In this document: positions 5,226-63,682 of the stretch, piece by piece
How the letters are laid out: every line of letters starts with the position of its first letter
Position numbering within the stretch: position 1 is the first letter of the stretch
DNA from: a candidate division WOR-3 bacterium
GTDB taxonomy: Bacteria > Hydrothermota > Tepidihabitantia > Tepidihabitantales > JAOUPE01
Assembly (NCBI GenBank): GCA_039801565.1
Contig: JBDRUX010000002.1
Location: 332 to 64,331 of the forward strand
Direction: 5' to 3'
Length of the DNA: 64,000 nucleotides
Notes under the pieces: generated by a model
What the model was told of the DNA's origin: nothing
What the model saw: the letters and a program-made list of their open reading frames with translations, nothing else
Database searches by the model: none
Translations under genes and position numbers: made by a program

Positions 5226-5833
5226 AGGATTGGCACACCGGTCACTGACCCCAAAAAGATAATTCCCAATAGAATAAAAAATCCGTAACGCTCGAGTCTC
5301 ATATATTGGTAAGCGAGATTTGCTGGCAGCAGATAATATAAGATTTTGGAACCGTCTAACGGTGGGATCGGAATTAAATTAAATGCGGCAAGGATTAAAC
5401 CATAGAAAAAGAAAGAGAAACTGATGACACTGATAAATTCACCAAGATTGCTTGGCATTATTTTCATAAAAGCTGAAGCCGGCAGACCGTGTAAGGGACG
5501 AGCAAAGAAACGGATGAGAAGACTAAAAACCAAGGCGCAGAGCAAATTGGCGATTGGTCCAGCAATTGAAGCCAGCATCATATCGCGCCGCGGCTTTCGG
5601 AAATTGTAAGGATTTAAAGGCACTGGTTTTGCCCAACCGAAATGGAAAAGAAAAATGGCAATTGTGCCAATCGGGTCTAAGTGCTTTAAAGGATTAAGGG
5701 TCAAGCGACCATTAAGCCGAGCGGTTGGGTCACCCAATTTATCCGCAATGTAGCCGTGGGCAAACTCATGAATCGTCAGATTAAAAAGTATCGCCGGCGC
5801 CCGCAAGAGAAACAAAATTGGATTATCTAACAT
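5159..5833 (-). CDS. Site-2 protease family (peptidase M50) membrane metalloprotease
   Basis: HEFAHGY (HExxH) within a TM segment, multiple TM helices, LDGS-like second motif. Confidence 0.75.
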   Translation of the reverse strand: MLDNPILFLLRAPAILFNLTIHEFAHGYIADKLGDPTARLNGRLTLNPLKHLDPIGTIAIFLFHFGWAKPVPLNPYNFRKPRRDMMLASIAGPIANLLCALVFSLLIRFFARPLHGLPASAFMKIMPSNLGEFISVISFSFFFYGLILAAFNLIPIPPLDGSKILYYLLPANLAYQYMRLERYGFFILLGIIFLGSVTGVPILWSLIQPFIAFFSFLFLGQSIL

Positions 5834-7483: not shown

Positions 7484-8829
7484 CAAAGCGAAAATGTCCC
7501 CTTTAATTGCAAAACGAAAATGTCCCCTCCTCCTTTATTTAGTTATTATTATTTATATTATTATTTAAAGAGGACGAATGCAAGAACCATCAAAATCGTA
7601 TGTTAAACTGGGAGATAGAATTGTGATACTGACCGATGTTAAAAAGAGGTACCATCTCACTAAAACAAGCCAGCGAATTACTTAAAATCTCCTACCGCCA
7701 TGCCAAACGATTATACAAAATATTCAAAACCTCTGGTGTAATGGGACTCTTACCGAAAAAACGTACCAAACCACCCTGGAATAAAACTACCACCGAAATT
7801 AAACAGAAAATTATTAGCATTAAACAACAATTCCCCACCATTCCGCCTATGGCGGATTGCCATCTGACTGACTTGCTAAAAGAACAAGGCATAACCATCT
7901 CTCACGAAACTGTCCGCACCATCCTCATTCACAATCAACTCCACACCCCAAACCTTAAACTGAAACGACGCCCCCGAAAACGATTTGAAGCCGAAAAAGC
8001 CGGAAAATTGGTCCAGATGGATACCTCGCCTTATCATTGGTTACCAGCCATTGATAAGGAATTAAAGTTAATCCCTACCTTTGACGACCACTCCAGAAAA
8101 CCACTTGCCGCCCGAATTGCCGAACACGATACCACTTGGGAAAATATGGGTGTCTTAAGAAAAACGGTAGAGAAATATGGTATCTTCGAGACCCTTTATA
8201 CGGATTGTGATGCTAAATTCAAATACTATCGAACTAATTTCTCTTTATACTTCAATTATCAAAAACCACCGGAGGCGGTAGACACGCAAATTAGTCAGGC
8301 ATTAGCGGAATTGGGAATTATTATCCTTAACACCCATCCCCATGCGCCGCATGAAAAAGGAAAAATTAAACGTTTCTTTGGTTTCTTACAAGCCCGTTTA
8401 CCCATTGAATTTCAAAGGCATGGTATTACCACGCTAGCTGCGGCAAATCGGTATTTAGAAAAGTATTTAGACCGCTACAGTAGTCAATGGGTGCATAGTA
8501 CTACGGGGATAATTCCGGATGAGCGATTTAAGAATTCCTGTTTTAAGCCGTTACCGGCGGATTGTGATTTAGATGCGATTTTCTGTTTGCGCGAGACTCG
8601 CAAGGTAAAGAAGGACAATACCTTTAGCTATAAGGGGCAGACATTTCAATTGACCAATTTTAATTATCGGGCTTATTGGGGTGATGTTGAGATTGCGCTT
8701 CGGATTATTCCTGGGAAAGAAATTAGAGTCTATCATCAGGACCGATTAGTTCAAAGATTTCGTTATAATGGTGACCGATGATTGACAACCAAAAGAAAAA
8801 GTTTATCGTAAGGGGACATTTTGGCTTTG
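7484..8829 (+). mobile_element. Insertion sequence (~1.35 kb) with 19-bp imperfect terminal inverted repeats and one rve-type DDE transposase gene
   Basis: Left IR caaagcgaaaatgtcccct (7484-7502) versus the reverse complement of the right IR aggggacattttggctttg (8811-8829), 18/19 match. A second tandem copy of the left IR lies at 7509-7527. Flanks share gtcat/tcat, a possible target-site duplication. Confidence 0.7.
7636..8781 (+). CDS. DDE transposase/integrase (rve superfamily; IS481/ISNCY-like)
   Basis: N-terminal HTH; DDE candidates QMDTS…TDCDAKF…HAPHEKGKIKRFFG (E in a PQTQGKVER-like context). Confidence 0.7.
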   Translation: MLKRGTISLKQASELLKISYRHAKRLYKIFKTSGVMGLLPKKRTKPPWNKTTTEIKQKIISIKQQFPTIPPMADCHLTDLLKEQGITISHETVRTILIHNQLHTPNLKLKRRPRKRFEAEKAGKLVQMDTSPYHWLPAIDKELKLIPTFDDHSRKPLAARIAEHDTTWENMGVLRKTVEKYGIFETLYTDCDAKFKYYRTNFSLYFNYQKPPEAVDTQISQALAELGIIILNTHPHAPHEKGKIKRFFGFLQARLPIEFQRHGITTLAAANRYLEKYLDRYSSQWVHSTTGIIPDERFKNSCFKPLPADCDLDAIFCLRETRKVKKDNTFSYKGQTFQLTNFNYRAYWGDVEIALRIIPGKEIRVYHQDRLVQRFRYNGDR

Positions 8830-8874
8830 TCATAACCAGATTACTGTTTTCTGTTTTTGTAAGATATTGAAAAA

Positions 8875-9465
8875 TTGCCTGACTTTTTCAGAGCTCTCTT
8901 TAACTCTTGGCTAAATAAAATTAGTTATGACTTAACTAAATTCGGGTTGACACTGGATATAAAAAAACAGCCTAAACCACCAGTTCAAACCGCGATGCTT
9001 AAATTCAAAGAAGTTTTATATCAGTTGGGTTTAACTGAACAAAAATCGGCAAAGCTATCAATCACACTGGAGGTAGATGCCAATCCGCCTAAAGGTTTTA
9101 AAATCGAGACCTCTTTAATCACCCGGCATTTTGTCTTTGCGATTACTCATTTTGACATCTCCTCCCTTTATGCCCTTAAACTCCATGCCTGTTTTTTTCG
9201 AAAATATACCAAGGGCAGGGATTTCTACGATTTACTCTGGTATTTAGGCAGAAAAGCGGTTCCCAATTTCAAATTACTCAATAATGCGATTGAACAGACA
9301 GAAAAAAAGAAACTAAATATTAATGCCAATAACTTTCGAGAGTTTTTGCAAGAACATTTAGCAAAGATTGACTTTAATCAAGTGAAGCGAGATATTAGTA
9401 GATTTATTGAAGATAAAAATGAATTGAAATTGCTGGACAAAGCAACAATCCTAAAACTGGTTTGA
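8875..9465 (+). pseudogene. Nucleotidyltransferase AbiEii/DUF1814-family toxin, C-terminal fragment (N-terminal NTase domain missing)
   Basis: KGRDFYDLLWYL matches the conserved DUF1814 (AbiEii) C-terminal motif. The frame is closed by a stop at 8860-8862, so nothing can extend upstream. TTG start; lies 46 bp from the IS right end. Confidence 0.45.
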
Positions 9466-11852: not shown

Positions 11853-13157
11853 ATGGAAAGAGTTTTAGCCCGTGAAGTAAGAAATTATATCGGCAAAGAA
11901 ATTTTGCTAAAAGGTTGGATTCACCAAATCCGACCCTTAGGCAAGATTGCCTTTATTCTATTGCGTGACCGTAGTGGAATAGTGCAAACCATTGTCACGG
12001 ATGCCAAACAAATTAATCTGGCGGAGTTGGAACGCGAAAGTGCTGTAGCGATTTGGGGCAAAGTAAAAGAGGAACCACAGGCGCCTGGCGGTATCGAAGT
12101 CGAGGTTAAAAAGATTGATGTGATTGCGAAAACTTTGGCACCGTTGCCATTTGAAGTGAACCGGTCGCAGGAAATGTTGAATCTGAAGATTGATATGATT
12201 CTTGACCACCGCCCCTTCAGTTTAAGAAATCCTGAAATTGGTAGTGTCTTTAGAGTCCAAGCGGAAATTTGTCGCTCGTTTGCCGAATTTATGCGAATGA
12301 ACGATTTCTTAGAGGTTCACACCTCAAAAATTATTGCCCAAGGAACTGAAGGCGGAACGGCTTTATTTCCCATTCAATATTTCGAACAGAAAGCCTATTT
12401 AGCCCAAAGTCCTCAATTCTATAAACAGATGCTGGTTGGCGCGGGTTATGAACGAGTTTTTGAGATTGGTTTTGTCTATCGGGCTGAAGACCATGCCACC
12501 TCTCGGCATATCAATGAATATTTGAGTTTAGATTTTGAAATGGGCTTTATTGATTCTTATCAAGAGGTGATCGATTTAGAAATCGCCTTCTTGAAGTATC
12601 TTTTTAACAATCTAAGAACCAATTGTGCTAAGGAATTGGCAATATATCAAGTTGATTTGCCTGAGATTAAAGAGATTCCTCAAATCAGATTACTTGATGC
12701 TATCAATATTATCAAGAAGGAATTTGGCAAAGAATCGTCCCGACCTGATGATTTAGACCCGGAAGGTGAAAAATTAATCTGTGAATATACCCAAAAAAAA
12801 TACGGTTCGGATTTTGTCTATATCACCAATTACCCGGCTTCGGCTCGACCATTTTATACAATGCCTGACTTAGAAAATCCCGGTCTGACTAAAAGTTTTG
12901 ATTTGCTTTACAAAGGGTTAGAGGTGACAACCGGTAGTCAAAGGATTCACGATTACAATATGCTGGTGGAGAACATCCGACGATTTAATATGGACCCTAA
13001 CTCATTTGAATTTTATTTAGAAATTTTTCGTTATGGTATGCCGCCGCACGGAGGCTTAGCAATTGGCACCGAACGATTGACGCAACAGATTTTAGGGTTA
13101 AAGAATGTCCGCGAAGCGAGTTTTTTTCCCCGTGACCGCTACCGTTTAACACCATAG
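11853..13157 (+). CDS. aspS: Aspartate--tRNA ligase, archaeal/eukaryal type (class IIb)
   Basis: C-terminal …FRYGMPPHGGLAIGTERLTQQILGLKNVREASFFPRDRYRLTP, the AspRS2 signature; 434 aa. Confidence 0.8.
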   Translation: MERVLAREVRNYIGKEILLKGWIHQIRPLGKIAFILLRDRSGIVQTIVTDAKQINLAELERESAVAIWGKVKEEPQAPGGIEVEVKKIDVIAKTLAPLPFEVNRSQEMLNLKIDMILDHRPFSLRNPEIGSVFRVQAEICRSFAEFMRMNDFLEVHTSKIIAQGTEGGTALFPIQYFEQKAYLAQSPQFYKQMLVGAGYERVFEIGFVYRAEDHATSRHINEYLSLDFEMGFIDSYQEVIDLEIAFLKYLFNNLRTNCAKELAIYQVDLPEIKEIPQIRLLDAINIIKKEFGKESSRPDDLDPEGEKLICEYTQKKYGSDFVYITNYPASARPFYTMPDLENPGLTKSFDLLYKGLEVTTGSQRIHDYNMLVENIRRFNMDPNSFEFYLEIFRYGMPPHGGLAIGTERLTQQILGLKNVREASFFPRDRYRLTP

Positions 13158-13208
13158 GTGATTAAGTTTTCGCCTTGACAAGTCATCATTTAACAATAAA
13201 ATCAGATT

Positions 13209-14492
13209 ATGTTTATTGAAGAACTTGCTCGATATGTTGGTAAGGAAGTGACGATTCACGGCTGGGCGTATAATAAACGTTCTTCGGGCAAAGTTCGGTT
13301 CTTAATTGTTCGGGATGGTACCGGTTTTTTACAAACTGTCTTTTCCGAAAAAGATGTCTCGGCTGAGGCATTCGACTTAGCTGACCGGATACCCCAAGAG
13401 TCTTCTTTAACCGTGACCGGTACAGTCCGAGAGGATAAACGAGCACCCGGTGGATATGAGTTAATCGCCAAAGACTTAAAACTGATTCAAGAAGCCAAGA
13501 ACTATCCAATTACTCCGAAAGAACATGGTATTGAATTTCTGATGGAACATCGCCATCTCTGGTTGCGTTCCCGACGGCAACATGCAATAATCAGGATCCG
13601 TTCGGAGATTGTTAAGGCTTGTCGCGATTTTTTAGATGACCGAGGTTTTATTTTGGTGGATGCTCCAATCTTTACACCAGCTGCTTGTGAAGGAACCACC
13701 ACTCTATTCGAAGTTGACTATTTTGGTCAAAAGACCTACCTTACCCAATCTGGCCAACTTTATAACGAACCGGCAGCCGCGGCGTTTGGTAAGGTCTATT
13801 GTTTTGGTCCAACTTTTCGCGCCGAAAAGTCAAAGACCCGAAGGCATCTAACCGAATTCTGGATGTTAGAGCCAGAGGTGGCTTTTTTTGAGTTAGATGA
13901 TATTATTAATTTAGCTGAAGATTTAATCTGTTATGTGCTTGACCGAGTTCTTAATAAGCGGAACGAGGAATTAAAGACTTTGGAGCGAGATATTACAAAA
14001 TTAGCCAATATCAAAAAACCATTTTACCGAATCACTTACAATGAGGCATTAGAGATTTTAAATAAAAAGGGTCAAAAGGTGGAATGGGGTGAAGATTTTG
14101 GCGGTGATGAGGAGACTATCCTATCCGAATCATTCGATAAGCCAGTCTTCATTCATCGCTTTCCTCGGCAGTGCAAGGCGTTTTATATGAAGAGCGACCC
14201 CAAAGATGAAAAATTGGTATTGGGTGTTGATTTACTGGCTCCGGAAGGTTATGGTGAGATTATTGGCGGTGGACAAAGAGAAGATGATTTAGCTACCCTT
14301 GAAAAAAGGATTGAGGAGAATAAGTTGCCAAAACAAGCTTTTGAATGGTATTTGGATTTGCGCCGCTATGGGAGTTTTCCCCATTCCGGTTTTGGCTTAG
14401 GAATCGAACGGACTGTTGCCTGGATTTGTAAGGTCCATCATGTTCGTGAGACGATTCCTTTTCCTCGACTCTTAGAAAAGGTCTATCCATAA
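13209..14492 (+). CDS. asnS: Asparagine--tRNA ligase
   Basis: C-terminal [27 protein letters not shown]…VRETIPFPR, the AsnRS signature. Confidence 0.85.
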
Positions 14493-21286: not shown

Positions 21287-22144
21287 TTGATTAGGTTCTC
21301 AATGCGTTGGTTAATATATCAACAAGCAAGTAAACGATTCCCTTATCTTTTATTGATTGAGCACGAGGCTGGTAAATTTTTAAGTTATGCGGTGCAGGAT
21401 AAATGGCCCGGTCCGGGGAAAAATATTTTTTGTATCCCAGGTCAAGGGTTGACTGAAGACCAACTACCGAAAGAATTGGAATTATTAGATTCCTGTGATA
21501 TTAAGAAACTTGCCCGTTACGGTCGGAAGTTGGTAGTAATTTTAGACCGCAAGGTGAAGAAACGGTCTTGGTTCTTAACCGTGGAAAAACAATCAAAAAC
21601 CAAGCCGGGAAAGACTTACGAGCAAACTTTCTGGATTACCCAGGCATCAGCAGTTGCCCACCGCGGCGGTGCTTACCTTTCCGAAGCCGGTAAGCGGCGC
21701 GATTTGACTATTGTTTGTGATAAAAGAGAACGCTACGGTTACAGTTTTCCCAAATATACTATTGAGAAAATCAATTTGCCTATTGGTGACTATGCCTTAA
21801 AATTGTCGAACGGTAAAATAATTGCAGTAGTGGAGCGTAAGACCAAAGATGGCTTTATCCATGAAATCGCAACCTTTGACGTCCTGAAGGCACGGTTATT
21901 AGAGATGATTGAGTCTTATAAGTACTGTGCCTTGCTGATCGAGACGAATTATTCCGATTTAATTGATCCGAAGAAGTGTAAATTCTATTCAGCAGGATTT
22001 GTGGCAGAGGTTATCGCTGAACTCTTTGCCAATTTTCCAAAGTTACAGATTGTCTTCTGCTCGAACCGAATATTTGCCCAAGAATGGATTGAACGCTATT
22101 TTCAACGTATCGCCAAAATCGAAGAACCAAGACTGATGCGTTGA
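21287..22144 (+). CDS. ERCC4-type (XPF/Mus81-like PD-(D/E)xK) nuclease-domain protein with uncharacterised N-terminal domain
   Basis: C-terminal GDYALKLSNGKIIAVVERKTKDGF matches the ERCC4 GDx(n)ERKxxD signature; the ~150-aa N-terminus is unrecognised. Confidence 0.5.
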   Translation: MIRFSMRWLIYQQASKRFPYLLLIEHEAGKFLSYAVQDKWPGPGKNIFCIPGQGLTEDQLPKELELLDSCDIKKLARYGRKLVVILDRKVKKRSWFLTVEKQSKTKPGKTYEQTFWITQASAVAHRGGAYLSEAGKRRDLTIVCDKRERYGYSFPKYTIEKINLPIGDYALKLSNGKIIAVVERKTKDGFIHEIATFDVLKARLLEMIESYKYCALLIETNYSDLIDPKKCKFYSAGFVAEVIAELFANFPKLQIVFCSNRIFAQEWIERYFQRIAKIEEPRLMR

Positions 22145-22427
22145 GTTCCTTTCAACCGGAAATTTTTTAAAGATAAAATAAGAATTTCTTTTAACTATTA
22201 GAAATTTAAATAGTAGTTTACCCGGTAAAAGTAGTTTAGGTATAAGAGAGACTTGGTATTGCCCTTTGGTTTTTAATTACCCTTAAGTCTTATCTACGAT
22301 TTAACCCGTTCGCTCTTCTAAGATTTTATATTGCATATACTTATACCATTAGCCATTTTGTTTACTTTAATAATTGTATAAAAATTGAGTTATCGGTCTA
22401 CTTCCCAAATGGCTTTTCGGGCTATTC

Positions 22428-22631
22428 AGTAGGTAAGCCGGTGGGCTAGCCTCTGGGCAGTTCGGTGGGTTGACCACCCCCTTGCCTACCGGCTAGCCCG
22501 GGGGCTAGCCTATGGGCTAGGCTGCTCCATAGTCAACCAGTTTGCCAGCCATATAGCCTACTCGCTTGCCCGGTAGGTTGACCAGCGGATTACCAAGTAG
22601 ACTATCCAGAGGGTAGCCGGGTGGGTAAACC
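22428..22631. repeat. GC-rich degenerate tandem array with ~12-bp period (~17 units) containing three copies of the palindrome GGCTAGCC
   Basis: Units such as ggtgggctagcc / taccggctagcc / cgggggctagcc / tatgggctaggc / agccatatagcc / tactcgcttgcc. No open frame (stops and indels break every frame). Sits in a 730-bp gap between convergent genes. Confidence 0.6.
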
Positions 22632-22872
22632 GGAGGTTCGGTTAAGGAGCTGGTCATTAATTTAGTTTTTAATCAATCGCGGTATCGGCTTTTGCCTTTG
22701 ATATTGAAACCAATTAGAAGGTCGGTAAGGCAATTGTAGTGATGACAGAGTATAAAGTGGGCTTTGAACTAAATTAGAGATTCAATTCCAAACTTGTTGT
22801 AATGACTGGTTATTGGTGTTTAATTTAAGGCAAATTAGCCAATTTCCCAATCCCAAAATTGTAAAAGTTAAC

Positions 22873-40985: not shown

Positions 40986-41229
40986 AACCGCCAGCCCAGA
41001 ATGGATTGCACCTTAAGACCCTTTTTACACTCAAAAACAATCCTCGGCTTATTCCGTAGCGGCGCAACGCAAGAATTGAATATTCCGAACAGGATGGATA
41101 AAACCGACAAGTGTTAGGCAATAATGGGGAAATTAGCTGCTGGTAGCAATGAATTAAAAAGACCAATAAATTACATATCAATTTTTTACTCCTTTGGCTA
41201 ATGACAAAAGTTCCTCTTGTAATTGCCAA
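40951..41229 (-). CDS. yidD: Membrane protein insertion efficiency factor YidD
   Basis: YQQLISPLLPNTCRFYPSCSEY signature. Confidence 0.85.
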   Translation of the reverse strand: MAITRGTFVISQRSKKLICNLLVFLIHCYQQLISPLLPNTCRFYPSCSEYSILALRRYGISRGLFLSVKRVLRCNPFWAGGYDPVPELKNRQ

Positions 41230-41513
41230 TAGGTCTTACCCACCGCATTGGGGTGGGCTTGGATGACATATTCAAATCCTTCAGTAAAAGATTCTTTGTT
41301 CCGGCGATAGATTTCGCGGAGTCGGCGTCGGATTAAATTTCTCATTACCGCAGTCTTGATATCTTTGGCGACTAAGAAGGCAACCCGTTTTCGATTGGCA
41401 GGCAGGTAGCGTAGCGTCAAATTTTCCGTTTGTCGGTGACCACCCTTTTTCAAAACTTGTTCAATCTCCTTCCGTTTTCGAATGATTTCATACTTCTTTA
41501 AGGTTTGGCGCAT
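41178..41513 (-). CDS. rnpA: Ribonuclease P protein component
   Basis: Basic ~110-aa protein with RNR-like motif (LIRRRLRE) immediately downstream of rpmH. Confidence 0.85.
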   Translation of the reverse strand: MRQTLKKYEIIRKRKEIEQVLKKGGHRQTENLTLRYLPANRKRVAFLVAKDIKTAVMRNLIRRRLREIYRRNKESFTEGFEYVIQAHPNAVGKTYWQLQEELLSLAKGVKN

Positions 41514-41540
41514 AATTCATAGTCAGATTGTCGCAATTGT

Positions 41541-41678
41541 TTATACCGCCAGCCGTTTCCTTCCTTTTTTTCGCCGCCGCTTGAGCACTTTCTGACCGCC
41601 TTTGGTTCGCATTCGAGCCCGGAACCCATGGGTCCGCTGCCGTTTAATTTTTGATGGTTGATAAGTTCTTTTTGGCAT
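41541..41678 (-). CDS. rpmH: 50S ribosomal protein L34 (absent from the ORF track, <60 aa)
   Basis: Translation [45 protein letters not shown]; RBS aaagaggtg upstream; canonical rpmH–rnpA order. Confidence 0.9.
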
Positions 41679-41845
41679 AAATCACCTCTTTTTCAATTAT
41701 TGAAAATCTTGGGCAACTTAATCTTGATTTTAATCCTTTTCGAGTTGTCACCCTAATTTGCATTATAAAACAAAGATTGATAAAGTCAAGGATTATTAAA
41801 ACAAAAACTTCTTGACTTTGCAAGCAACTGGTTTATTATTCCCGT

Positions 41846-42963: not shown

Positions 42964-43518
42964 ATGGCTAAAAAACTTATTATGGTGGGAAAGGAAAGTC
43001 TTATTGTAGTTTTGGTTTCAGTAATACTGGCAGGCGCTGTAATCATCTGCTGTGCTAAAACGGAAACTCAAACTTCAATCGTCATCAAAGAGTTAGGCTT
43101 CATAATGAAAGTGCCAAAGGGTTGGAAAGTTGGTGAACCTTCGCTAAAAAGGGACAAAAAATGGCTTGTTACTAAAGATGGCGATCATTGCTTCCCAGCG
43201 GAAAAGAATTCTTATCCTTTTGGCAGAGTTTGGACCTTTCCGGCTGAAAACTTTTCTTCCCTTGATGAATATGTCCACACGATACCTACTTTGCATGGTA
43301 AGACTCTGCAGGAGTCGGCTATTACAGTTTGTGGATTTGATGGCATTGAGGTTATTGGTTCAGGGATTGGCGAGAATCAGATTCCAGTTAAAGGAATCTA
43401 TCAATACTTTGCCAAAGATGATAATTTCATTGTTGCTTCGTTTTTGACCATTGCTGATTCTTTCCTTCAACAGGAATCAATTTTCCGGGCGGCTTTAAAA
43501 ACGATTATTATAAAATGA
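42964..43518 (+). CDS. Hypothetical protein with N-terminal signal/TM segment
   Basis: ORF only; translationally coupled to the upstream gene. Confidence 0.35.
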   Translation: MAKKLIMVGKESLIVVLVSVILAGAVIICCAKTETQTSIVIKELGFIMKVPKGWKVGEPSLKRDKKWLVTKDGDHCFPAEKNSYPFGRVWTFPAENFSSLDEYVHTIPTLHGKTLQESAITVCGFDGIEVIGSGIGENQIPVKGIYQYFAKDDNFIVASFLTIADSFLQQESIFRAALKTIIIK

Positions 43519-43736
43519 TATAGTGAATGATATAAGACCTTTGGCTCAAGTGGTGACTGATGGTTACTCGGTTCAACAAACATTGGATGGTGGATATACC
43601 ATTGGCGACTGGATCTTAGTGTGTCGATGGATGTGATGAAACACAGAAGAAGTTAACCTCAGAAACCAATCCCCTGACCGGCTTTCCAATCACTCTTCCA
43701 ACTAACTTATCTTCTAACTTCAGAGTTATTCTTCTT

Positions 43737-43898
43737 GCCAACCTATCCGTCAACTTGCAAATCAATATCCGAACTGGCTTGCAAACCTTTCTTCAAACCA
43801 AATCCCTAAGCAACCGATTGGGCAAACCTAAGACCTAACTCCGATACTGTCCCCTATACCGCCTACAGGGTAGCCAGGGGCTAGCCCCGGGCTAGCCC
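43737..43898. repeat. Second degenerate 9-13-bp-period array ending in two GGCTAGCC palindromes, related to the 22428-22631 array
   Basis: …agggtagccaggggctagccccgggctagccc (compare 22603 agggtagccgggtgggtaaacc); recurring (A)ACC/TCC/GCC ends every 9-13 nt; ORF-free 740-bp gap. Confidence 0.45.
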
Positions 43899-44137
43899 TT
43901 AATGATATGTCGAGATGATATAAGGCTCTGAAAATAAATAAGTTAACTGAAATTTAGAAAAATTAATGTTTTTAGGGAAAATTTCCATTCGTCTAAGATA
44001 GAAAAGTTACCTACCAAATACTCCTGAAGGATAAACAGAGCATAATTAAACTTCCTGAATGCTAACCTGCTTGGATTATTAAGAGTTAGTTTACTCCTAT
44101 ACTTTCTGAAGTTGAAAACTCAAAAAATAAATTTTAA

Positions 44138-44165
44138 TTGACTTTCGAGGTTTATTTAATATAAT
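44138..44165 (+). promoter_or_regulatory. Near-consensus sigma70-type promoter upstream of tldD (TTGACT-N16-TATAAT)
   Basis: ttgact ttcgaggtttatttaa tataat, about 95 nt upstream of the ATG at 44260. Confidence 0.45.
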
Positions 44166-63611: not shown

Positions 63612-63682
63612 CTGGGGGACAGGGATTCGAACCCCGATAGACAGATCCAGAGTCTGCCGTCCTGCCGTTAGACGATCCCCCA
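63612..63682 (-). tRNA. tRNA-Gln (anticodon CUG)
   Basis: Manual fold: acceptor UGGGGGA/UCCCCCA (U1:A72 as in tRNA-Gln), 3-bp D-stem GUC/GAC, anticodon stem GCAGA/UCUGU (5 bp, one G-U) with loop C-U-CUG-G-A, T-arm CGGGG-UUCGAAU-CCCUG; CCA not encoded. Confidence 0.75.

Follow-up and report, generated by a model that had tools for sequence, protein, structure and literature searches.

A probable lineage-specific interspersed repeat with a 12-nucleotide period in a candidate division WOR-3 bacterium

In a 64-kb stretch of DNA from a candidate division WOR-3 bacterium (the whole of this stretch is hereafter the window), a GC-rich intergenic array at 22392-22657, which we call r1, is probably a single copy of a non-coding interspersed repeat specific to one lineage, a narrow subgroup within candidate division WOR-3. 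The element would consist of a decayed 12-nt tandem array with a GC hairpin cap and would be mainly selfish or neutral. Its periodicity, its membership in a family, the dispersal of that family within one genome and its patchy presence in near relatives are observed directly, no coding or conserved-RNA signal was seen, and we infer the mobility of the elements from their distribution only. Nothing that we found shows that the cell needs the element.

The array r1 lies between convergent genes, as an earlier note on this DNA had described; the plus strand carries an ORF with an ERCC4 domain, and the minus strand an S8 peptidase with a T9SS sorting domain. That note had recognized about 17 units at 22428-22631; the array itself stands, and its limits widen to a periodic zone of about 22392-22657 with approximately 22 degenerate 12-nt units, a few 11- and 13-nt units among them, as seen in a register listing. 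The 12-bp periodicity is borne out by base autocorrelation over 22428-22631 (z = 8.7, 8.3 and 6.5 at lags 12, 24 and 36, with negative values at lags 3, 6 and 9) and by a Fourier scan, in which the best period is 12.0. By autocorrelation, r1 and a second array, r2, are the two most 12-periodic places of the window. The plus-strand unit consensus of r1 is roughly NGNGGGCTAGCC, and the GC content of the array is about 57%; the GC profile runs at 0.55-0.64 within it versus 0.23-0.38 in the spacer, in line with the earlier description of a GC-rich array in AT-rich surroundings. Tandem Repeats Finder recovers only 2.5 copies because the units are degenerate. They are contiguous 12-mers without spacers, which sets them apart from the conserved 23-55-nt repeats and unique spacers of CRISPR arrays.

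The palindrome GGCTAGCC, reported for three sites in r1, was located at 22444, 22491 and 22503, and elsewhere in the window it occurs only in r2 (43879 and 43890). These five occurrences compare with 0.39 expected, and shuffles never reached that number. In r1 the three copies are part of a palindrome and hairpin core at 22418-22523, to which no strand is assigned, with GGCTAGGC at 22515 and arms at 22418-22451 and 22467-22500; about 37 nt of this core (GCCTACnGGnTAGCC..GGGGCTAGCC) are common to r2. On the minus strand, a 5' part with a C/G ratio of 2.31 is followed by the hairpin cluster, which suggests a minus-strand orientation for r1, although this is uncertain because the units are near-palindromic. 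The array is a G/C-balanced, CTAG-rich and strongly self-pairing variant of the repeat family.

The second array had been placed at 43737-43898. Its existence is confirmed and its start shifts to near 43656: approximately 17 degenerate 12-nt units (consensus AACCTnCnAACC) occupy 43656-43866 on the plus strand. The array r2 is C-rich and G-poor (C 34%, G 10%), and its best 78-nt window on the plus strand, with a C/G ratio of 5.0, ranks in about the top 0.2% of windows. Its 3' cap, at 43852-43898 on the plus strand, reads CCCTATACCGCCTACAGGGTAGCC, then GGGGCTAGCCCC (43877-43888) and GGGCTAGCCC, and forms an 11-bp hairpin without a U tail. The array at the same locus in a relative (L130) ends in the same cap, CCCTATACCG..TAGGG..GGGGCTAGCCCC. 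An imperfect direct repeat of about 25 nt, missed by the automated repeat search owing to a 1-nt indel, brackets r2 on the plus strand. Its left copy at 43514-43540, AATGATAT(n5)ATGATATAAG as read from the sequence, overlaps a weak promoter-like site at 43495-43524, and its right copy at 43900-43925, AATGATAT(n6)ATGATATAAG, directly follows the r2 hairpin; contig L122 of a 97%-identical relative begins exactly within this right copy. Further downstream, a promoter-like site for the TldD gene at 44138-44165 on the plus strand (TTGACT-16-TATAAT, 11/12) puts r2 in the interval that separates one transcription unit from the following one. Scans of the r1 and r2 gaps gave no intrinsic terminator, the hairpins being without U tails; genuine intrinsic terminators are present elsewhere in the window. 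A third GC-rich gap (40986-41845) was considered as a further array and rejected, as it holds rpmH, rnpA and yidD.

We surveyed 391 kb of DNA from this bacterium and its relatives and found eight independent arrays, all of them intergenic and all from the closest relatives. The best Fourier period is 12.0 in seven of the eight and 11.75 in the other, single copies span 230-300 nt, and densities of 2 per 64 kb and 3 per 34.5 kb were seen. The unit consensus is not the same from array to array. The perfect 12-nt palindrome GGGGCTAGCCCC, equal in length to the array period, ends four arrays (r2, L130, L150/L151 and L152B), in each case 3'-terminal on the C-rich strand, and occurs nowhere else in the 391 kb. 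Folding predicts a stable terminal hairpin in all copies, and in the L126 and L152A copies the 12-nt units stand between one hairpin box on the 5' side and another on the 3' side. On the oriented strand C/G exceeds 1 in all arrays, whereas the coding strands of this genome have G > C. Alignments of r1 to r2 and to the L130 array score 35-46 against 17-18 +/- 2 for shuffled sequences, the longest being that of r1(+) to L130(-) (46 against a null of 18 +/- 2). A decay gradient away from the 3' palindrome was considered as a general feature and is supported only in part: L130 and L152B show it clearly, r2 and L150 not at all.

Dispersal within one genome is most evident on a 34.5-kb contig that holds three arrays. 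Two of these are 83-84% identical over 231-247 nt, with similarity lost abruptly at both ends, and their contexts are unrelated: one lies directly after a stop codon and the other, by our reading of the sequence, between two divergent promoter-like sites. Up to five of the eight arrays lie next to the 3' end of genes whose products are T9SS-sorted (L126, L130, L152B, L149, and r1 if it is on the minus strand), and most of the arrays next to such genes are sense to the upstream gene. This adjacency hints at a function or an insertion preference and counts against a reading as neutral repeats. The L150 array neighbours an insertion sequence; a link between the two was rejected, as the insertion sequence is independent, with terminal inverted repeats and a target-site duplication of its own. 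A pattern scan of genome contigs with GGCTAGCCN{2,6}GGCTAGCC was too unspecific to find family members, and those Bacteroidota matches that we looked at proved to be ordinary AAAGGCTAGCC-loop-GGCTAGCCTTTT hairpins.

Presence of the arrays differs among close relatives. Upstream of TldD, an array is present in the window organism and in relatives of 88% and 84% identity, and absent in a 92% relative, in two other relatives of 88-89%, and in every relative of 79% or less whose contig extends far enough upstream. At the S8 locus, where the earlier note had proposed looking for r1 in related genomes, the outcome was divided: an 86% relative has a different array in the opposite orientation (L149), for which a reliable alignment to r1 was not obtained, and 80% and 73% relatives have no array downstream of the gene. 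Unit sequences of arrays at orthologous loci are unalignable. A comparison of two MAGs of one species gives four changes in the 266-nt r1 array versus two in 535 nt of flank, with a mean divergence of 1.08% over 21.9 kb; between these two strains, change in r1 is no slower than the genome average, with no visible constraint. The number of r1 units is the same in three assemblies (L001, L002 and L157) and the L126 array is identical in four, and such identity across several samples implies that current turnover is slow.

We propose that the arrays arose when a 12-nt GC-rich unit, akin to the palindrome, was amplified in tandem. Whole elements might then have been copied to further sites between genes, either through recombination or through a transposase supplied in trans, after which the units would decay roughly neutrally; decay of this kind would make the element mainly selfish or neutral DNA. 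Most copies present an array that is C-rich on one strand, with at least one very stable GC hairpin capping the 3' end of that strand. Because of this anatomy, a C>G tract and then a strong hairpin, the likeliest side effect on the host is that an element co-transcribed behind a gene should promote transcript-end formation or stabilize the 3' end. An interspersed repeat is characterized by related copies at unrelated places between the genes of one genome, by restriction to a lineage and by variable presence among close relatives, and all three are seen here. For the arrays, no mobilizing enzyme, terminal inverted repeats or clean target-site duplication was found. The ends shared by L126 and L152A (CAGCCCCCGA... 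and ...TACCCCC(A/T)CCC) are both C-rich on the same strand, not inverted as in a MITE, and the short flanking matches TTAA (r2), TAATA(A)G (L152B) and TAAG (L152A) do not go beyond chance in AT-rich spacers. No Y1/RAYT transposase gene is among the 39 window proteins scanned with Pfam, and the only transposase-like ORF in the window, at 7636-8781, is of the rve type. The suggestion of a REP-like or mobile family is supported in its broad sense, by the dispersed related arrays, the 84% copies and the variable presence, and not in the strict sense of a REP or MITE, with no terminal inverted repeats found and no RAYT among the window proteins scanned.

A functional alternative, which we consider unlikely, is that the arrays are Rho-dependent terminators or insulators, with the C-rich strand forming the 3' UTR of the upstream gene. 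Rho hexamers would load on the cytosines phased at 12 nt, and the GC hairpin would either make RNA polymerase pause or shield the trimmed 3' end. Formally, such a role might fit the anatomy. In RhoTermPredict, a rut site is a window of 78 nt in which C/G > 1 and a C recurs every 11-13 nt, followed by a GC hairpin within 150 nt, and natural terminators of this kind share with the arrays the C > G tract, the C spacing, the hairpin at no more than 150 nt and the location 3' of a stop codon (PMC6407284). Windows of this description are present in r2(+) (C/G 5.0, a chain of six) and r1(-) (2.31, a chain of seven), each with hairpins after the phased C residues, and r1(+) reaches 1.5; the terminal hairpin is found in all copies. 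The C/G ratio above 1 on the oriented strand, opposite to the coding strands, would also suit a terminator, as would the location of r2, L126, L130 and L152B, which are sense and just 3' of a gene, and the genes upstream of r1 and r2 have no intrinsic terminator following them.

These operational criteria are permissive, however. Natural rut sites are unstructured and are not visible tandem repeats; low structure is seen in r2 and not in r1, which is highly structured (z -2.5 to -5.5, with long hairpins), and both r1 and L130 pair strongly with themselves (z -4 to -9). The periodicity is in all four bases and not in YC specifically, and cryo-EM points to about 9-10 nt for each Rho subunit instead of 12 (PMC12360218). 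For some copies no transcript from a neighbouring gene is expected, or the array is antisense to the gene upstream: by our own reading, L152A is placed between two divergent promoter-like sites and should not be transcribed from either flanking gene, and L149 runs antisense to the S8 gene, a gene already provided with a canonical terminator. Two hairpins already precede L152B after the stop codon, and the two-strain comparison shows no constraint. Unlikelier still is an extended form of this idea, in which the elements would be portable transcription-boundary cassettes: mobile DNA whose 12-nt-phased C tract loads hexameric Rho and whose cap pauses the polymerase or protects the 3' end, spreading between genes with an apparent preference for the 3' ends of T9SS-secreted-protein genes and resetting transcript ends. 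If the terminator reading were true, this would be a rare case of a Rho-loading signal that can be read straight from the sequence and that travels as a mobile unit.

We consider it improbable that the array is a gene for a structured small RNA, transcribed from its own promoter, whose functional helices are formed by the palindromes. Such a gene would account for the GC-rich island that r1 forms inside an AT-rich spacer, for the weak promoter-like site immediately 5' of r2 and for the stable 3' hairpin in every copy. It would also explain why r1 folds better than shuffled sequences on both strands (z -3.3 on the plus and -2.5 on the minus strand; -5.5 and -3.9 against mononucleotide shuffles), although any array of near-palindromic units is expected to fold well. 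In r2, by contrast, the whole array folds no better than shuffles (z -0.24) and only the cap folds. An Rfam 15 search of the window matched only a tRNA at 63612-63682; for both array gaps nothing was better than E = 0.2, all far below family cut-offs, and no family matched even at E = 10, so that no Rfam family explains the array. By our own reading of the fold, some strain changes break predicted r1 pairs without compensation. Together with the unalignable sequences at orthologous loci and the rate of change between the two strains, these results turn against the structured non-coding RNA that had been offered as one explanation.

Quite improbable, too, is the protein-binding-site array that had been put forward beside it, that is, DNA sites for a dimeric protein that recognizes a CTAG-centred palindrome and polymerizes in a 12-bp register, like an operator or centromere. 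Proteins of the MetJ type and plasmid ParR/omega-type proteins bind tandem palindromic boxes. The palindrome GGGGCTAGCCCC is perfect over 12 bp and limited to these elements, and CTAG is otherwise strongly avoided (16 observed versus 233 expected, with 6 of the 16 in arrays). Against this, only one to four units per array are near the palindrome and the others match it at chance level, so most units are too decayed for equivalent sites; the unit consensus varies between arrays, no candidate binding protein is consistently adjacent to the arrays examined, and near relatives differ in array presence.

A purely local, degenerate minisatellite without relatives elsewhere, an outcome that the earlier note had allowed for, would agree with the mere 2.5 clean copies of Tandem Repeats Finder and with the plasmid, phage and viral collections, in which the arrays found no match; it is refuted, and retains very little probability, by the second array in the window, the six more in close relatives that share the terminal palindrome, and the two paralogous copies on one contig.

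The reading to which we give the least credence is a small protein gene of four-residue repeats (G-x-x-hydrophobic), with TAG read-through or truncated at 46 residues. The gap had been described as free of ORFs, which does not hold strictly: a mechanical 46-aa ATG ORF in r1 runs at 22517-22657 on the minus strand and then continues through exactly three in-frame TAG codons, each within GGC-TAG-CC, where sibling units read GGC-TAC or GGC-TAT. We judge it a non-gene. No gene is called there in L001 or L157, the L002 annotation lists none after the peptidase, its translation has no homologue among 5.8 billion proteins, and it has no Pfam match; the one strain difference inside it changes, by our own frame reading, GGC (Gly) to GAC (Asp). 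Recoding or read-through of TAG was rejected, as the genetic code is standard with TAG an ordinary stop that ends 8 of 53 genes, the sole tRNA of the window is an ordinary tRNA-Gln(CTG), and frames are inconsistent between arrays, the L130 array having, by our own reading, TAA as well as TAG in the corresponding frame. A glycine-zipper protein on the G-rich strand was likewise dismissed: hand translation finds that strand open in L126 and L152B, giving (G-S-x-L/F)n, and many stops in r1 and r2. No frame is consistently open in the arrays, and the earlier note had likewise described r1 as lacking a continuous reading frame; the open frame and strand vary by array, and that of r2 has no start codon. 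Between two paralogous copies, five of six frames have stops in both and the sixth has one stop in one copy, and the best frame has 10 synonymous versus 20 non-synonymous codon changes, without a synonymous excess. We conclude that r1 is not a gene. Tandem units without stop triplets are automatically open in several frames, and such GC-rich open frames could mislead gene callers. Large pneumococcal BOX elements are likewise open in several frames (PMC3049150).

An interspersed repeat, the reading that we prefer, would add a previously undescribed family to WOR-3, a phylum without cultures in which molecular genetics is essentially lacking. Short-read assemblies break at the arrays, in that contigs L122 and L150 start at or inside an element, and the arrays could serve as strain or lineage markers. 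As it stands, the family is a curiosity of genome architecture and not a new mechanism.

Among known repeats, a REP is a single imperfect palindrome of 20-40 nt with a conserved GTAG/CTAC head and a cognate RAYT. Like the REP and BIME elements mobilized by RAYTs, the WOR-3 elements contain extragenic GC-rich palindromes, and in L130 and L152B a CTAC/GTAG tetranucleotide abuts the palindrome (GGGGCTAGCCCCTAC); TAC follows the 12-nt palindrome in these two arrays and GCCTAC is found near the palindromes in r1 and r2. They differ in being 12-nt periodic arrays. The MIRU/VNTR loci of mycobacteria are intergenic tandem repeats at several loci, often between co-oriented genes. The WOR-3 arrays resemble them in being intergenic tandem repeats at several loci, whereas MIRU units are 40-100 bp long and vary in number between strains; in r1 (three assemblies) and L126 (four) the number is constant. 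The STRR of heterocystous cyanobacteria are tandem arrays of short units, spread over many non-coding loci within a lineage and not known to have a function, and in this arrangement the WOR-3 arrays are similar. STRR are heptamers without a palindromic cap, while the WOR-3 arrays have a period of 12, are far more decayed and end in a GC hairpin or palindrome.

The BOX elements of Streptococcus pneumoniae (boxA-boxB(n)-boxC) have a repeated internal unit of about 45 nt. As with the WOR-3 family, they are small intergenic interspersed repeats limited to one species group, they are modular, with terminal boxes around a tandem internal module and extensive predicted secondary structure, and large copies contain ORFs on both strands that are not genes (PMC3049150). 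BOX elements have been judged parasitic, with slow current transposition and a likely effect on co-transcribed genes (PMC3049150). The WOR-3 unit differs in its 12-nt length, in its strong C > G strand asymmetry and in belonging to another phylum; the likeness considered here is one of architecture. In kind, the family is comparable to BOX, STRR or MIRU repeats.

The array first described at r1 proves to be one of several such structures, and we show here a non-coding, dispersed and lineage-restricted repeat of 230-300 nt, composed of decayed 12-nt units and closed by a hairpin or palindrome cap. The palindromes, the 12-nt period and the rise in GC over the spacer reported in the earlier note are all borne out. 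GGCTAGCC occurs at 22444, 22491, 22503, 43879 and 43890, which makes five copies in the 64-kb window versus 0.39 expected, and no shuffle got to five. Autocorrelation of bases across 22428-22631 gave z = 8.7 at lag 12, 8.3 at lag 24 and 6.5 at lag 36, with negative values at lags 3, 6 and 9, the reverse of ordinary coding sequence. A Fourier scan of r1 also found 12.0 to be the best period, and when all of the 64 kb was ranked, the most 12-periodic 150-nt windows came from r1 and the second array, r2. Both arrays exist as claimed, but each is wider than the first reading gave: laid out in rows of 12, r1 runs from ~22392 to 22657 in ~22 units, a few of them 11 or 13 nt, and the periodic zone of r2 extends from ~43656 to 43898. 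Tandem Repeats Finder reported only 2.5 copies in r1 because the units are degenerate. GC content is 0.55-0.64 in the array versus 0.23-0.38 in the spacer around r1, where the neighbours are an ERCC4-domain ORF (+) and an S8 peptidase with a T9SS C-terminal sorting domain (-). The tetranucleotide CTAG is ~15-fold under-represented in the window (16 observed versus 233 expected by base composition), and six of the 16 copies fall within r1 and r2; restriction avoidance or repair bias are possible causes of this scarcity.

Relatives were retrieved via the flanking proteins, and 391 kb of WOR-3 DNA was scanned for a period-12 signal. Eight independent arrays were found: r1, r2, and those on contigs L126 (the array recurs on L127, L129 and L133), L130, L149, L150 (its array recurs on L151) and L152, which carries two, L152A and L152B. 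The best period was 12.0 for seven and 11.75 for one, and the unit consensus varies among them (e.g. AACCTnCnAACC, ACTCCCGAAGCn, AGGCTAGACC, ACnCCCTAAGCn). All eight have C/G > 1 on one strand, from 1.15 (r1) to 3.3 (r2), and on that strand every one of them ends 3' in a very stable hairpin. GGGGCTAGCCCC, a perfect 12-nt palindrome and thus equal in length to the period, is confined within the 391 kb to r2, L130, L150/L151 and L152B, always at this 3' end. Its alignments place r1 in the same family: it has ~37 nt in common with r2 (GCCTACnGGnTAGCC..GGGGCTAGCC) and ~80 nt with the L130 array, with scores of 35-46 versus 17-18 +/- 2 for shuffles. Unlike the other arrays, r1 is G/C-balanced and rich in CTAG palindromes, which makes its orientation uncertain; we place it on the (-) strand because C/G is 2.31 in the 5' part of this strand, ahead of a hairpin cluster, and because the longest alignment pairs r1(+) with L130(-). 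GGCTAGCC alone is not specific to the WOR-3 element, since GGCTAGCC-loop-GGCTAGCC also occurs in several Bacteroidota (L014, L019, L047, L049, L081), in ordinary terminator-like hairpins flanked by A/T runs. A different motif, TTTTTAACCACAGA...CACAGAGAA...TTTAGCCATAGAGG, recurs in the relatives' intergenic spacers (L126 3816-4017; L130 3569-3671; L152 21280-21500). It fills the TldD-PmbA spacer in two relatives; this spacer is 12 nt long in the window, which holds no clear copy of the motif.

Dispersal is seen in a pair of related copies. Since L133 overlaps L152 (2,613 nt, 100% identity), a single 34.5-kb segment holds the array at the TldD locus, L152A and L152B. The TldD-locus copy and L152A share 83-84% identity across 231-247 nt, with abrupt loss of similarity at both ends, and sit in unrelated contexts: the former starts right after the stop codon of a T9SS-sorted-protein gene, and the latter lies between two divergent genes and between their promoter-like sites (the L152 promoter-like sites, like the short duplications flanking arrays, were read by eye and are not tool output). 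No inverted repeats were found at the shared ends. An array upstream of TldD is present in the window, an 88% and an 84% relative; it is absent from the 92% relative, from two other 88-89% relatives and from every relative at <=79% whose contig reaches far enough upstream. One 88% relative that lacks the array has a C-rich hairpin, CCCTCACCCTACCCCACTCCCGCAAGGGTAGGAGGGAGG, upstream of TldD (L156 120-165), perhaps a remnant, perhaps unrelated. At the S8 locus, a canonical intrinsic terminator in the 86% relative is followed by a different array in opposite orientation; in the 80% relative an array lies upstream of the gene beside an unrelated IS, with none downstream, and the 73% relatives lack arrays altogether. 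This IS (L150 222-1551; DDE_Tnp_1 transposase, inverted ends CTGATTTACCCCCAC, 10-bp duplication GGTGAGTTGG) is inserted upstream of the S8 peptidase gene, a few bases past the array copy. On either side of r2 (43514-43540 and 43900-43925) lies an imperfect direct repeat, AATGATAT(n5-6)ATGATATAAG, and both copies hold TGATATAAG, which resembles an extended -10 element. A long target duplication, promoter duplication and chance are all possible origins of this repeat. The L122 contig (97% relative) begins exactly within the right copy.

Within species the arrays are stable and are not hypervariable VNTRs: the r1 unit count is equal in three assemblies and the L126 array is identical across four. 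Two MAGs of the source species differ by 4 substitutions in the 266 nt of r1, 2 in 535 nt of flanks and 1.08% on average over 21.9 kb, so that r1 gives no sign of purifying selection. Across the 728-nt gap, two same-species assemblies differ by a single indel, a duplicated TATACC (6 nt) within the AT-rich spacer (L002 ~5312-5317, window ~22244). Searches of viral, plasmid and phage collections turned up no array copy.

The arrays probably arose when a GC-rich unit of 12 nt, akin to the palindrome, was amplified in tandem; whole elements would then have been copied into new intergenic sites, as their distribution suggests, after which the units would drift. In L130 and L152B the units match the palindrome less well the farther they lie from the cap; r2 and L150 show no such gradient. 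The behaviour proposed here has been described for the parasitic small interspersed repeats BOX, RUP and SPRITE (PMC3049150).

The arrays could alternatively be Rho-dependent terminators: their anatomy formally fits the operational definition, which asks for C/G > 1 and a C every 11-13 nt in a 78-nt window, followed by a GC hairpin within 150 nt (PMC6407284). C/G reaches 5.0 in r2 and 2.31 in r1(-), with phased-C chains of 6-7, and the C-tracts locally reverse the genome's strand skew, since coding strands here are G-rich. Moreover, four of the eight arrays lie in sense just 3' of a gene, and both window gaps lack an intrinsic terminator. Against a required terminator function, however, L152A is placed where no flanking transcript is expected, L149 (86% relative) is antisense behind a gene with its own terminator, r1 and L130 are heavily self-paired, and the period is carried by all four bases and not by YC specifically. 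Recent structural work suggesting ~9-10 nt per Rho subunit (PMC12360218) also counts against a 12-nt fit. Given these points, transcript-end formation is plausibly a side effect of the element and not the reason it exists. As many as five of the eight arrays lie beside the 3' end of a gene for T9SS cargo, and the window has three more genes of this kind with no array beside them; the association is suggestive, not established.

As for the structured RNA proposed earlier, the array matches no Rfam family, the window yielding one tRNA and nothing else at gathering thresholds and the r1 and r2 gaps no meaningful match at E = 10. Folding of r1 is better than that of shuffles (z -2.5 to -5.5), an excess expected of near-palindromic units, and r2 folds at shuffle level except for its terminal hairpin.

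Nor is r1 a gene. An ATG ORF, 22657->22517 (-), encodes 46 aa and runs on in frame past exactly three TAG codons, all in GGC-TAG-CC where sibling units have GGC-TAC or GGC-TAT. No gene is called within the array in three assemblies, the ORF has no Pfam match, and its translation shares words with none of 5.8 billion proteins. The long open frame of r2 is positioned differently and lacks a start codon, and the corresponding frame of the L130 array, as read from its sequence, has many TAG and TAA. A pair of paralogous copies shows differences at 40 of 231 positions, with 10 synonymous versus 20 non-synonymous codon changes in the best frame; stops interrupt both copies in five of the six frames and one copy in the remaining frame. 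Tandem units free of stop triplets leave several frames open automatically, an effect recorded in large pneumococcal BOX elements (PMC3049150). Recoding of TAG is rejected, as the window uses the standard genetic code, with TAG a normal stop in 8 of 53 long ORFs, and its sole tRNA is tRNA-Gln(CTG).

The window comes from the chromosome of an uncultured candidate division WOR-3 bacterium and carries ordinary housekeeping genes. The S8 peptidase beside r1 has identical coding on a Logan contig and GCA_965649045.1, and the TldD protein next to r2 and its near homologues carry WOR-3 names in source records. The apparent gap at 40986-41845 (-) holds three small genes under the ORF-list cut-off (rpmH, rnpA and yidD), upstream of yidC, a KH-domain jag-like gene and mnmE, a classic origin-proximal cluster to which dnaA is not adjacent. 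In a 99%-identical MAG (L157 13432-14273) the ERCC4-domain gene, a single 285-aa ORF in the window (21287-22144), is called as two genes of 146 and 134 aa, and in L002 (5400-5514) unrelated sequence replaces it at the r1 gap boundary. Elsewhere, an rve/HTH_32 integrase-like ORF (both domains under Pfam cut-offs) followed by an AbiEii-family toxin ORF (7636-9465) may form a small mobile or defence islet, and two class II tRNA-synthetase paralogues (tRNA-synt_2 with an OB anticodon-binding domain) lie in tandem at 11853-14492.

Among known systems, the element differs from MITEs in having no terminal inverted repeats and from VNTRs in showing no copy-number change, and by the defining test of each it is not a CRISPR array, a gene or a member of any Rfam family. 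Rho-dependent terminators offer a functional analogy. REP/BIME sequences are a looser parallel, to which the element might belong; its 12-nt periodic architecture is unlike that of REPs, and the readable part of the genome showed no RAYT gene. The nearest likenesses are interspersed repeats of modular or tandem build, namely BOX, cyanobacterial STRR and mycobacterial MIRU. We file the element as a new family of a known kind, the bacterial interspersed intergenic repeats, among which its precisely 12-nt periodic, strand-asymmetric build is unusual.
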